Shown here piece after piece: positions 27,001 through 33,000 of a DNA stretch of 64,000 nt. The stretch is taken from sequence record NZ_CP023785.1; one strand, 5' to 3'. The DNA is from a plasmid. Position 1 is the first letter of the stretch. Each line of letters starts with the position of its first letter. A program made the position numbers.

Positions 27001-30000
27001 AACCAGCACGGCCAGTAATTAAACGAAAGAAAAAGATAACCCAAGACTGAAGTGTAGAGCGTATGTGATCATAGGCTTTTTTATTTTTGCAAAAAACAAG
27101 AAAGGTAGGAAAACTCATGAATTATGAAGAAATCGAAAACAGAAAAAAAGTGTCGAAAGAAATGGAAGAAAAGTTGCTAAAAATGATGAAACAAAAACAC
27201 CTTAAAAGATTATCTGTCATGCAATATATCAATGATATGAAGATAACAGGAAAAGAGAAAGCTTGTTTGTTAGGTTCAATGAAAAACTTTGAACAGTTGA
27301 GGCGAACTTATGTAAAAACAGGTTCCAATTGCCAACTATTATTAGAAGTTTCTTGACGATTATGATATGAAAATGATCAATTATGATGTGGCATTGTTAT
27401 TGAATAAAAAGAATAGTAAAATTTAACATGGTTTATCTTGGTTAGATGTAGGTAAATTAATTCATATATAGAAGGTAGATAGATGAATAAAAACAATAAA
27501 ACTTTATTTAATCCTTACGTGGGCGTAATCATTGTTTTTCTTCTTTTTAGTTATTTTGCTTATCAAGGTTATCAAAAGGACAAAATCGCTGAAAAAGTAG
27601 ATGGTGTAACAAAAACAATCCATATTCAGGAACAGGCTAAAACCTATCAAGATAATTTAACCAGTTTAACGGATATTTCTAAGAGACAACTGATTACTAA
27701 TCAAAAACAGGCATTAGAAAAGGATCTCAAAGGTGAAATTGCTGGAAAACTTGTTTTTTCTTCTACAGGATTTATTCTCCCTGTTTTTCAAGGAGCGAAT
27801 AGCGACACGCTTAGTTTAGGAGTAGCTTCTACTTATTATCTAGATACTGAAATGGGAAATGGAAATTATATTCTTGCTGGTTATAACGTAGATACACCAA
27901 GCGTTTTATTATCCGATATGACTGATTTATCTGAAGGAGAAGAAATTGATCTAATCGATGCTCATTACAAGTATCAGTATGAAGTCTCCAAAAGAGGAAA
28001 AATTTCTGATTACAGCCAGGTAGTTCAATCTAAGGAAAACAATTCCTTTTTATCCTTGCCAAAAGCAGGTAAAAAACCACTACTCACACTGTTAGCCTTT
28101 CAAGCAAATAATATGAAAAAGTGCGATGTGATCCAGTGTGAATTAGTCAATGTAGAAAAAATCAATAAATAAGGGAAGTGAGTCACATTCAAGAACTTGT
28201 AGAAAAATTGATCAATAAAATGAGTGCCATTTTTCTGTTACTGTTGGTATCCATTCTATATTTAATATGGACGGTGGGGTTAAATCCTCCTACGATATTA
28301 TTTATTTATGATAATGCTGCACAGTTAGTGACGTTTTTCGTAGGCTGTTTGTTTCTTTTGAATCTGTACAAGGTAAAGAGAAACGATCTATTCTTCATTG
28401 CAGCAGGCATTCTTTTTTACCTTTTCTTTTCTTTTTTTAGAAGCTACCGAGGAGATACTTTCTATGGTGATCTGATCGTTCCGACAATTATTGCTATTAT
28501 TTTGATTGTAAAATGGACGAAATTTACTGTAATTGATCGTAGCTTGTATCTTGTAGTATTCTATGTCTTTTTACTCGTAACGGTTTATCGAGTATTTACT
28601 GAGATACCAGTACCAGAAGGACAAAGTATTTGGAATCCATCGAACAAATTATCAGATATTTGGATCAATACAAATACGATAGGTAGTTCTTTAATGACAT
28701 TAGCCCTTCTTATCACAGGATTTGCTAGTTCATTTGGAAAATGGTACATGCGATTGCTATCATTACCAGCGTTGATTCTTGCTGGGGCAACGATTTGGGT
28801 TTGCCAATCGAAAGCAGCATTATATGCGCTTGTTATCTTCATTATCTTAGAAATTTTACCTAAGAAGGTTTTTCGAAATACACACTTGTCCTTTTGGATG
28901 TATGCAGCAGTTTCGGTTCTAGCTTTACCGATTTCTTATTTTGCTGCAATGTCAGACAAAGTTCACTTATTTACAGGACGAGAAGAAATTTGGCGCAAAT
29001 TCTATGAAACATTAGGCGAAAAAACAGGACAAATATTTGTAGGGATGAAACCTTTCTTTTTCCATAGAGGAAATCAGATTCTAGGTAATCATAATACGTA
29101 TCACGCACTCGTCAATCACTATGGATTGATTGGTTTTGTTCTATCGATTATTCTTTTGCTTAGTTTCTTATGGTTGCTCGTAAGAAAACGTGAGCTGACA
29201 AATGGACAACTAACATTCTTGTGGGCTTTTTTAGCGATCATGTGTCAATCGTTCATGGAAGAAACATTAACGACAATCAGTTGGGTGCCAATTGTATTCT
29301 TAATGTTAGCAATGGCTACACACCAATATAAAACCACCAGATAAATGAAATAGAATAGTAATAAGAGAAAACACTTTTTCGTTGTGAAAAAGTGTTTTTT
29401 GTTTTGTCTGAAAGGAGGCAGATGGATGAAAAAATGGTTATTTGGTTTTTTAGGAGTCGCTTTAATCGTCGTTTGCAGTGTGTTTGGCTATGTTAGCTAC
29501 CAAAAACATGAAGGAGAGGTGTTTAAGCAAAATATAGAAAAAAAGATGCCCGTAGATCAAATCAATGCACACGCAAAGAGTTATAAGGAGGATGCAACGA
29601 ACGTCAATAATGATATGTCTTTGGGGCAAATGTTGTCCATACAAAAAGAAGCAATCGAAATGGGCGTCAATAAACAAGTATTTGCACAAATTCAGATTCC
29701 TGCACTTGGTTTAGCATTGCCAATTTTTAAAGGGGCAAATCAATACACTTTGAGTCTTGGAGCGGCTACTTATTTTTATGAAGATGCCGAAATGGGTAAA
29801 GGAAACTATGTCCTAGCAGGTCATAACATGGAAATGCCAGGTGTTTTATTTTCTGATATTCAAAAGTTGTCATTAGGGGAGGTGATGGACTTAGTTAGTA
29901 ACGATGGCGTCTATCGTTACAAGGTAACGCGTAAATTTATCGTACCTGAGTACTTTAAATTAATCGATGGCGTTCCTGAAGAGAACTCTTTCTTGTCTTT

Positions 30001-33000
30001 ACCAAAGAAAGGAGAGAAACCCTTATTAACGTTGTTTACTTGTGTTTATACGTCACAAGGAAAAGAAAGATACGTGGTACAGGGAGAGCTACAATAACAA
30101 GAATTTAATCAACGCGAGTCGTTGAAATATGAAATGAGGAGAGTAAAAAATGGCAATAAATCGGTATGTAAAAAAAGCTGGAATGATTGTTGGAATGTTA
30201 GGAATCATTGCAGGCTGCTTTCAGGGGTATCGAGCTTATGCAGAAGATGTCACGCAAAAAACGCCACCAGAAAGGGTCAATATCACGGTTCATAAATTAA
30301 TGTACGATCAAAGTACGCAATTGAACGTTGATATTGACGGAATCAAAAATGATGGTTATACGCACGATCAATATCCTACAGGTGTAACGAAATACAACAA
30401 GGCAGATTATGGTGATGTTGAGTTTACGTTAGGAAATATTACGGATCAAGTATTACCGACTGAAGATTCTGATCTAACCAACGCGAAAGTGGACGAAATC
30501 GTTAAAGATGTAGAAGACAAGGGATCTAACAGTGAGTACGTTAAGAATGCAACCAATAAAATTACTTCAGCTGTAGATGAAAATGGTGAGATCACTTTTG
30601 CTGATCAACCAGCCTATGTCAATTCCAAAGGGAATGTATATGTGGTTTATGAAAGTAAATCCGCTGCTGGATTAGTCACACAAAAAGCAAAACCAATGGT
30701 TGTGATTGCGCCAATGACAGACAACACAGGATCAGGATTTTTAAAAGATATTCATTTGTATCCAAAGAACATTGTTTCTAAGTTGAGTTTTGAATTAACG
30801 AAATTTGGTGACGATGGCACAGCTCAAAGCAAACAAACACCTTTAAAAGGGGCAAAATTTGAGTTATACAAGGGCGAACCTGGAAAAGGAACAAAATTAG
30901 GAGAGCTTGTATCGGATGATCAAGGAAAGCTGACTGCAACTGATTTGACGTTAGGAAAATACTACTTTGTGGAAGTTCCTTCAGAAGTTGTAGTTGGATC
31001 AGATCAAGAACCAACAGCAGACCAATATTTGTTAGGCGCAGACGCTCGCAACGATGCGCACAATAAGTTAACCTTTGAAATTACGAATGACGGCGTGACA
31101 AGTGATTTAAAAGCTTCCTACGTGAACTATAAAGCACCAGTGATCGATAAAACAGTGACAAATGGAACAGGAGAAGAACATTCTTTCCAAATTGGTGACG
31201 CAGTGAATTATCAAGGTACAATTCATATCCCTACAGATATCGCAGGTGGAACAGATGGGATTACAGTAAATGGTGTAAAAAGTGAAACTTCTCCTTACAG
31301 TGTATTTAAATGGGGCGACACAGCAGGTAAAGGACTTTCTTATGTTGCTGAAAAAGCAGATATTAAAGTAACAAATAATGATGGTTCAGTCGTATTAAAA
31401 GAAAATACTGACTATAAAATCGAAAATTCTGATAGTGGTTTTGTGATCGATTTTATCGTAAATAATGGACAAGTAAGTGATACAGTTGCGAATTTACATG
31501 GTCAAGATCTAAAAATGACTTATAACATGTTTGTGAATGATAGTGCTGAAATCGCAAATCCATTAACAAATAGCGTGGATTTCGTTTATAACAATAATCC
31601 ATTTAATCAGGAAGAACACCACGAAAAAACGAAAGCTGACGTTGTGACTTATGGCGCAAAATTCTTAAAAGTCGATAGCGGCCTATTTGGAACAGGTATC
31701 AAAGCAACACCGCTTGAAGGCGCAGAATTTGCAGCTAAGAATGCAGAAGGTAAGTACTACGGTGGACTTACTGATACAGATAAAGATGGTGTCAAAGAAG
31801 CAGTTTGGGTAGACGATGTAGCAAATGCAGCAATCCTAAAATCAGATAAAGAGGGTCATTTTGAAATCACTGGTTTAACTGAAGGAGATTACTCACTGGA
31901 AGAAACAAAAGCTCCTGAAAACTATCAAAAATTAACAAAAGAGATCTCTTTCAAAGTAGACAAAGATTCATACAAAGAAGAAAACCGAATCACGATCAAA
32001 AATAATCAAAAAGCTTCCGTACCAATGACTGGTAGCAACGGTTTCCAATCTTACGTATTGATCTCTTGCTTGTTGCTTGGGGCAGGCGCAATTTCTGCAG
32101 TTGTTTACTTTAAGAAGAAAGCCTAGAAGGATCAGCTAATGATTATCAGACACCCTAAGAAAAAGCGAATCATGGGTAAATGGATCATTGCTTTCTGGTT
32201 ACTTTCAGCTGTTGGTGTCTTACTTTTGATGCCTGCTGAAGCGAGCGTGGCGAAATACCAACAAAATCAGCAGATTGCCGCAATCGATCGAACAGGAACG
32301 GCAGCAGAAACGGATTCTTCTTTGGATGTTGCTAAGATTGAGTTAGGCGATCCTGTTGGTATTCTTACAATTCCAAGTATTTCTTTAAAACTACCAATTT
32401 ATGACGGAACTTCCGACAAAATTTTAGAGAATGGTGTAGGGATTACGGAAGGAACTGGCGATATTACAGGAGGAAACGGTAAAAATCCTTTAATCGCAGG
32501 GCACAGTGGACTTTATAAAGATAATCTTTTCGATGATTTGCCTTCAGTTAAAAAGGGAGAAAAGTTTTATATCAAAGTTGATGGTGAGCAGCACGCTTAT
32601 CAAATCGATCGGATTGAGGAAGTGCAAAAAGACGAACTACAAAGAAACTTTGTCACTTACTTAGAACCAAATCCCAATGAAGATCGAGTAACGCTAATGA
32701 CATGTACGCCTAAGGGGATCAACACACACCGTTTCCTAGTGTATGGGAAGCGAGTAACCTTTACAAAATCAGAATTAAAAGATGAAGAAAATAAGAAACA
32801 AAAATTATCTTGGAAATGGCTTTTAGGAAGTACTGTTTTTCTTTCAGTCATGATCATTGGTTCGCTATTTGTTTATAAAAAGAAAAAATAAAGGAGGGTA
32901 ACCAACATGAGAAATAGAAAATGGCTATTTGTTTGTGCAGCCGCTCTTTTTTCTTTCACTGCCTACACACAGTTGACGTTTGCAGACAGACAAGAAAGCA

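Follow-up and report, generated by a model that had tools for sequence, protein, structure and literature searches.

Why should a plasmid-borne pilus locus be preceded by a sortase homologue that has lost its catalytic residues and by a relative of EpaQ, a protein predicted to act in the synthesis of a wall polysaccharide? We address this question for a stretch of 64,000 nucleotides from the plasmid record NZ_CP023785.1, here called the window, which stems from an Enterococcus faecium-type conjugative plasmid with a RepA_N replicon, a MOBP relaxase and an MPF_T mating system. Ahead of a pilus operon the window carries three consecutive genes coding for a sortase-like protein, a membrane protein and an active sortase. 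A preliminary description of this DNA considered the trio as a possible system for modifying a sortase-assembled pilus. We find that the first gene codes for a sortase-derived pseudo-enzyme retained under purifying selection, that it is tightly coupled to the gene of a close EpaQ paralogue, and that this pair of genes is exclusively linked to the pilin gene cluster 1 (PGC-1) of E. faecium. Tentatively, we suggest that the dead sortase might direct the EpaQ-type enzyme to the pilus proteins.

Results

The list of open reading frames agrees with the positions that the preliminary description had given for the trio (Table 1). The first protein aligns with the adjoining active sortase, as had been noticed before; the alignment covers 212 residues with 38% identity (E = 3e-49). 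The protein passes the Pfam model Sortase (PF04203) with 29.8 bits against a gathering score of 26.6. None of the NCBIfam models for the sortase classes A to F comes near its cut-off; the best one, class D SrtD, scores 34.8 bits with a cut-off of 140. A profile built from the family of this protein finds class A sortases of solved structure with E = 2e-21, and with Foldseek the AlphaFold2 model (predicted local distance difference test, pLDDT, 70) matches the SrtA structure 5hu4 with E = 9e-13 and a target-normalised TM-score of 0.82. The protein thus resembles the class A sortases, for example SrtA of Listeria monocytogenes (5HU4) and SrtA of Lactobacillus rhamnosus GG (7CFJ), in its fold, its N-terminal membrane anchor and its core motifs. 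It differs from them in that the histidine, the cysteine and the arginine of the active site are all replaced. Tyr134 stands at the position of the catalytic histidine, Ala205 at that of the cysteine, and the arginine is replaced by Cys213. In the alignment with the active sortase LAGYN is found opposite LAGHN, TLLAF opposite TLFTC, and the cysteine of KKCDVI opposite the arginine of KERYVV, which bears out the earlier statement that every catalytic residue has been exchanged. As the whole triad is replaced, transpeptidation by this protein is not possible. In short, the fold is that of sortase A, yet the protein is not an active sortase; we therefore call it the pseudo-sortase.

The loss of the triad is a property of the family. 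Among 15 aligned homologues (59-100% identity) tyrosine takes the place of the histidine in all 15, the cysteine position is occupied by alanine, glycine, aspartate, serine or threonine, and the arginine position by cysteine or valine. The flanks of the former active site, MGxGNYxLAGYN, FLxxPKxxxKPLLTLL and VxQxEL, are invariant in the same 15 proteins. In comparison with three divergent plasmids, the ratio of nonsynonymous to synonymous substitutions (dN/dS) of the pseudo-sortase gene is 0.17-0.31, with dS reaching 1.5. The neighbouring genes show values of 0.04-0.25, thus purifying selection on the pseudo-sortase is weaker than on its surroundings. The values nevertheless indicate purifying selection, and the pseudo-sortase is a retained pseudo-enzyme, as the preliminary description had supposed.

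The origin of the pseudo-sortase was sought with HMMER in a library comprising 1.84 billion protein representatives. Of the 137 full-length sortases closest to it, 133 have kept the histidine, cysteine and arginine, and all three residues are lost only in the pseudo-sortase clade. The closest active relative is the adjacent sortase of the pilus locus, with 149 bits versus at most 109 bits for any other, and the similarity extends to the membrane helix and the linker. That the nearest active relative is encoded next door agrees with a duplication that took place long ago inside the locus. A recent tandem duplication was rejected, since the two sortase genes are merely 38% identical. Sortases from Lactiplantibacillus plasmids were the next-best tblastn matches, but they have no EpaQ neighbour.

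The second protein of the trio is a close paralogue of EpaQ and not a generic ligase or a pilin O-oligosaccharyltransferase, to which it had been likened. It matches the NCBIfam model NF037933 (EpaQ) over all positions (1-377 of 377) with 529.9 bits, the cut-off being 100, and is about 55% identical to chromosomal EpaQ of the E. faecium group. RefSeq labels the two proteins of the pair simply "sortase" and "EpaQ family protein". Twelve membrane helices are predicted instead of the roughly ten that had been counted first. A large outer loop (residues 259-306) contains R268, E269, R297 and H305-N306, which are invariant in the family. The ligase motif H-[NSQ]-x9-G-xx-[GTY] can be recognized as H305-N306-x9-G316-xx-G319 and, together with the loop residues R268 and R297, is invariant in 29 EpaQ-family members. 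The plasmid clade has kept every family invariant. The model has the 12-helix fold of WaaL-type ligases, and WaaL is its only strong structural match. The preliminary description had placed the protein in the Wzy_C/WaaL/PglL family and had named the Pfam Wzy_C profile as the test. The fold and the motif uphold this placement; the profile does not, so that formally the test failed: neither Wzy_C (PF04932) nor any other Pfam family gives a real match, only 1 of the 29 EpaQ-family members matches Wzy_C, at a noise-level E of 6.5, and a profile of the EpaQ family finds nothing among the PDB sequences at E values up to 10. The relationship to the Wzy_C enzymes and O-antigen ligases thus appears at the level of modelled fold and motif only. 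The dN/dS values of the EpaQ paralogue versus divergent plasmids are 0.07-0.17.

Within the core epa locus, chromosomal epaQ is flanked by rmlB-rmlD-epaP and by the genes of an ATP-binding cassette (ABC) exporter. Its product is predicted to be an oligosaccharide transferase which, in the enterococcal polysaccharide antigen (EPA), attaches the decoration polymer to the rhamnan backbone; what has been published on this is a mutant phenotype and a structure-based prediction (bioRxiv 10.1101/2024.06.26.600781). The plasmid protein belongs to the same NCBIfam family and shares the invariant residues and the 12-helix layout with its chromosomal counterpart. The setting is different. The plasmid gene lies between the pseudo-sortase gene and the pilus operon and not beside rml or ABC exporter genes, it is preceded by the pseudo-sortase and not by EpaP (DUF7657/DUF7654), and the C-terminus of its product is about 20-35 residues shorter.

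The two genes are tightly coupled. Only 5 nucleotides separate the stop codon of the pseudo-sortase from the start of the EpaQ paralogue, which has no well-spaced ribosome-binding site here, and in two further loci (L004 and L010) the genes overlap by 8 nucleotides. This arrangement points to translational coupling. The gene order pseudo-sortase, EpaQ paralogue, sortase and 658-residue pilin recurs on the divergent plasmids L004, L007, L009 and L010, so the trio is conserved as a unit, a point on which the preliminary description had made its proposal depend. In L004 a PriCT_1 replication gene replaces RepA_N, and the pseudo-sortase is 62% identical to that of the window.

The pair is exclusively linked to PGC-1, including on divergent plasmid backbones. 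All module-bearing loci that were looked at closely (the window, L001, L004, L007, L009 and L010) have it upstream of PGC-1, and the plasmids of the PLSDB collection that encode the pseudo-sortase, among the matches listed, carry the active sortase too. We also surveyed 31 EpaQ loci, taking one genome per species. At none of the 28 chromosomal loci is a sortase found within 6 kb of epaQ, and the remaining three are plasmid-type loci adjoining PGC-1.

The reverse does not hold, as the pair is present on about 103 PLSDB plasmids, whereas about 276 Enterococcus plasmids carry the active sortase only. Since most PGC-1 plasmids do without it, the pilus locus can be maintained in the absence of the pair. 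In pLG1-type megaplasmids and many plasmids of the same replicon group, 39 bp stand in place of 27362-29382, which removes exactly both genes. This junction allele is the same in all module-less plasmids examined, which suggests that it arose once and was spread by recombination. The deepest PGC-1 lineages carry the module, with the reservation that the trees are blurred by recombination; on this tentative basis the module is probably ancestral and was lost once, the loss allele spreading afterwards by recombination. The two genes are kept or lost jointly with the exception of one fusion-deletion allele, in which residues 1-65 of the pseudo-sortase are fused to residues 158-388 of the EpaQ paralogue. 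This allele is recurrent in plasmids of E. durans and E. lactis (Table 1).

A separate observation concerns L010, a 19-kb plasmid of Enterococcus sp. DIV0210g. Here (7968-8621) the trio is intact, but a transposase-like sequence interrupts the pilin gene behind its 21st codon, and the remainder of the pilus locus is absent. L010 is the sole locus seen with the trio and no intact pilin.

Between the EpaQ paralogue and the active sortase gene we found a hairpin followed by a run of T residues, which ends about 25 nucleotides before the ATG of the sortase (Table 1). It is conserved in the module-bearing loci L004, L007 and L009. The module-less allele has a weak hairpin at this place (L002, 4365-4428; -6.9 kcal/mol, z 0.5). 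The hairpin of the window probably works as a terminator. The module may then be a separate transcription unit, or may attenuate the expression of the pilus operon. The stretch behind the hairpin is too short to hold a promoter; the pilus operon may therefore be expressed by read-through, and perhaps not to the same degree in the two plasmid types.

The genes 3′ to the pair are the plasmid-borne pilus cluster of E. faecium known as PGC-1 (fms21/pilA-fms20). They code for a major pilin that bears a pilin motif and a sorting signal, for a class C sortase and for a tip adhesin, and they are homologous to the annotated fms21 and fms20 of AP026635.1; the pilin, the sortase and the adhesin named in the preliminary description are thus all present. 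Many deposited plasmids are 96-100% identical in this cluster. Over the region 27000-36100, several deposited plasmids, among them NZ_OU015347.1 and NZ_CP066476.1, show 100% identity to the window, and with megablast the region matched 379 plasmid records, 378 of them from Enterococcus and some with fms21/fms20 annotation. Published accounts of PGC-1, which is counted among the virulence markers of E. faecium, describe fms21, fms20 and a sortase (PMC9262338). The locus studied here differs from these accounts by the pseudo-sortase/EpaQ pair, which a minority of the plasmids carries.

Table 1. Features of the pseudo-sortase/EpaQ module and of the adjoining pilus locus (aa, amino acids; positions refer to the window unless another locus is named)
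Feature	Position	Strand	Basis and remarks
Pseudo-sortase, 229 aa	27483..28172	+	N-terminal membrane helix, linker, class-A-like sortase domain; Pfam Sortase; AlphaFold2/Foldseek
EpaQ paralogue, 388 aa	28178..29344	+	12 predicted membrane helices, WaaL fold; NCBIfam EpaQ_fam, E 4e-159; model pLDDT 88
Intrinsic-terminator-like hairpin and T-run	29366..29400	+	Terminator scan; -17.9 kcal/mol, z -5.0, 0/200 shuffles as stable
Active sortase of the pilus locus, 223 aa	29426..30097	+	Annotated class A (RefSeq); Pfam Sortase, E 1.7e-20; His-Cys-Arg triad intact
Major pilin Fms21/PilA, 658 aa	30150..32126	+	YPKN pilin motif, VPMTG sorting signal; Pfam GramPos_pilinD1, SpaA, GramPos_pilinBB; NF033902; fms21 annotation in AP026635.1
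Class C pilin-polymerising sortase	32139..32891	+	NF033745, 187.3 bits versus cut-off 160
Small pilin-like protein, 253 aa	32907..33668	+	Pfam GramPos_pilinD1, E 1.2e-15; YPKS motif; Ser/Thr/Asp-rich N-terminal stretch (28-65); ends IVSTG, no membrane anchor
Conserved membrane protein, 86 aa	33681..33941	+	Open reading frame; C-terminal hydrophobic helix, then KKEG; conserved in L002, L007, L009, L044, L045
Fms20, tip-adhesin-type, 696 aa	33938..36028	+	VPKTG sorting signal; Pfam AgI_II_C2, Sgo0707_N2; TIGR04226; fms20 annotation
Internal-deletion allele	L003 4482-5084; L025 and L030 about 5818-6692		Protein clusters P0081 (132 member sequences) and P0022 (292 aa, 18 members)

Some further observations on the plasmid may be added. 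At 32907-33941 the small pilin ends with [IV][IV]STG and a non-hydrophobic tail, and the following 86-residue open reading frame supplies a hydrophobic helix and KKEG. This looks like a cell-wall sorting signal divided between two reading frames. It is not a sequencing error, because the arrangement is kept in the divergent loci listed in Table 1. Directly after fms20 and convergent to it, a gene on the minus strand (36064-38121) codes for a secreted protein of 685 residues with DUF5648, FIVAR, MucBP and CAP domains. It is found in several plasmids of the same replicon group; the megaplasmid L002 has other genes instead. The window holds two RepA_N replication genes (1-1041 and 23240-24280) whose proteins are 46% identical and whose downstream DNA is 98-99% identical, with repeats at 1543-1842/24795-25094 and 2812-3111/26352-26651. 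Two such genes with nearly identical downstream DNA make it look as though two related backbones had been combined in the plasmid, as a mosaic or as a cointegrate. A repeat of 300 nucleotides, identical at 3249-3548 and 58071-58370, suggests copies of an insertion sequence. The only Rfam match in the window above the gathering score is the Streptococcus small RNA SpF66 (13454-13671, minus strand, 49 bits, E = 1.7e-8), and the region of the pair and the pilus genes gave no Rfam match.

Discussion

We suggest that the pair is an optional two-gene accessory module of PGC-1 in which the dead sortase serves as a receptor for sorting signals and directs an EpaQ-type ligase to the pilus proteins. This is the explanation we prefer, and we offer it with reserve, as we would not call it probable. 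The module could operate in the following steps. Both proteins would be made together and anchored in the membrane so that their functional parts face outwards, and they might form a complex. The EpaQ paralogue would be a WaaL-fold ligase that takes an undecaprenyl-pyrophosphate-linked EPA-type glycopolymer from the EPA pathway of the host, because the plasmid region itself encodes no genes for glycan synthesis. The pseudo-sortase would have descended from the locus's own sortase and kept the ancestral groove, being unable to cut or join. It could bind the unusual [VI]P[MLK]TG sorting signals of the locus, or their lipid-II-linked product, and present the pilus proteins to the ligase, so that the pilus would be decorated with, or joined to, an EPA-type glycan.

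Glycosylation of the pilus by the pair with the dead sortase as adaptor is plausible. In its favour we count the invariant flanks and the purifying selection of a pseudo-enzyme whose loss of the triad is rare among its relatives, its kinship with the sortase next door, a partner with a WaaL-type fold, the ligase motif and all family invariants, the tight coupling of the two genes and their exclusive linkage to PGC-1. Known systems offer precedents. Enzymes of the Wzy_C family glycosylate pilins and S-layer proteins, and in the case of WsaA/WsaB a putative protein-binding partner is encoded just upstream (PMC2943079). Compared with WaaL (PDB 7TPG/7TPJ) and the Wzy_C family (PglL, PilO, WsaB, WsfB), the EpaQ paralogue is distant, with 16% identity and matching neither Pfam Wzy_C nor any PDB sequence, and its partner is a dead sortase and not a tetratricopeptide repeat protein. 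In Actinomyces oris the sortase substrate GspA is glycosylated in an LcpA-dependent manner (PMC7831098). The LcpA-GspA-SrtA pathway resembles our proposal in that a sortase substrate receives its glycan from an enzyme with a polyprenol-linked donor before it is anchored to the wall (PMC7831098); it differs in that the enzyme is an LCP (LytR-CpsA-Psr) phosphotransferase and not a WaaL-fold ligase, and in that there is no pseudo-sortase.

A dead paralogue of an enzyme that processes surface proteins is also found in the pilus loci of Streptococcus pyogenes. There SipA/LepA, a homologue of signal peptidases that lacks the catalytic residues, is required for the assembly of the pilus. SipA/LepA belongs to another enzyme family and is essential for polymerisation, whereas the module described here is optional.

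Several findings speak against a role of the pair at the pilus. About three quarters of the PGC-1 plasmids lack the module, and a partly deleted allele recurs. The strong terminator-like hairpin divides the module from the pilus operon. The outer loops of the EpaQ paralogue are 67-85% identical to those of chromosomal EpaQ, with five conservative clade-specific changes; such nearly unchanged loops argue for the same sugar-to-sugar chemistry and not for a new protein acceptor. Finally, the sorting motifs and the Ser/Thr-rich segment of the small pilin are alike in loci with and without the module. As no correlation is seen, they do not discriminate between the explanations.

The module could instead act on the EPA of its host. 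The EpaQ paralogue would then perform the same ligation of decoration to rhamnan as its chromosomal counterpart and alter or boost the EPA of the donor cell, and the pseudo-sortase would localise or stabilise the enzyme. Possible gains would be that the pili protrude, that mating is aided or excluded, or that the sensitivity to phages or to efagins is changed. This alternative agrees with the close similarity to a chromosomal protein that is encoded in the core epa locus and predicted to ligate parts of EPA (bioRxiv 10.1101/2024.06.26.600781), with the complete set of invariant residues and the highly conserved outer loops, and with a module that is dispensable for the pilus locus and followed by its own terminator-like hairpin. 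It does not explain, however, why a pseudo-sortase derived from the pilus sortase is translationally coupled to the enzyme, nor why the pair has never been found away from PGC-1. Moreover, the hosts already possess a chromosomal epaQ, and the PADLOC defence models match neither the two sortase-family proteins nor the EpaQ paralogue of the trio. We regard an action on EPA as possible but doubtful. It is also conceivable that the pair is a device of a new kind for surface assembly, by a mechanism in which the dead sortase is the substrate-recognition subunit of the WaaL-fold ligase and the ligase covalently joins the pilus or a lipid-II-linked intermediate to EPA, or grafts teichoic-acid-like EPA onto the pilins. 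The lipid-II-linked pilus intermediate would itself be an undecaprenyl-pyrophosphate-linked donor. We hold this mechanism to be unlikely.

The kinship of the pseudo-sortase with the adjacent active sortase, membrane helix and linker included, and the conserved flanks of its active site would also suit a decoy or allosteric partner of the active paralogue, which would compete for sorting signals or pair with the active sortase and so tune pilus anchoring versus polymerisation. The EpaQ copy would then be a separate passenger. But it is to the EpaQ paralogue that the pseudo-sortase gene is tightly coupled by the short gap or overlap, the hairpin stands before the active sortase, and plasmids have either both genes or neither, the single fusion-deletion allele excepted. 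Thus, a decoy seems quite unlikely to us. It is highly improbable that the pair is a decaying remnant without current function, even if it is missing from most PGC-1 plasmids, if an internal-deletion allele recurs and if the triad is lost. The reading frames are intact over a range of 59-100% protein identity, dN/dS remains low in both genes at a dS of up to 1.5, and the tyrosine at the histidine position and many motifs are invariant. On the dN/dS values a decaying pseudogene was rejected.

We found no description of a pseudo-sortase or an inactive sortase in the searchable literature, and sortase-derived pseudo-enzymes appear to be essentially undescribed. Searches for pseudo-sortase, EpaQ-like proteins and sortase/pili/O-antigen ligase returned no paper on the loss of the triad, the pairing or the exclusive association with PGC-1, nor is the pair mentioned in the published PGC-1 descriptions that we found. 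The preliminary description knew of no system of this composition, and the literature searched offered none for the pair; the pilus locus is the known PGC-1.

In summary, the pair is a compact two-gene handle on what EpaQ-type ligases do and on whether the synthesis of wall polysaccharide is coupled to sortase-dependent surface display. WaaL-fold enzymes of Gram-positive bacteria are poorly understood, and no activity has been demonstrated for EpaQ. The module resides on conjugative plasmids of clinical isolates of E. faecium, and because natural plasmids with and without it exist, its function is directly testable. Should the module merely duplicate chromosomal EpaQ, it would be of modest interest. 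If, on the other hand, the dead sortase acts as a recognition subunit, this would be the first case of a pseudo-sortase guiding a ligase of this family, and a new way of displaying proteins on the wall glycopolymers of Gram-positive bacteria, one that conjugative plasmids spread in a hospital pathogen.

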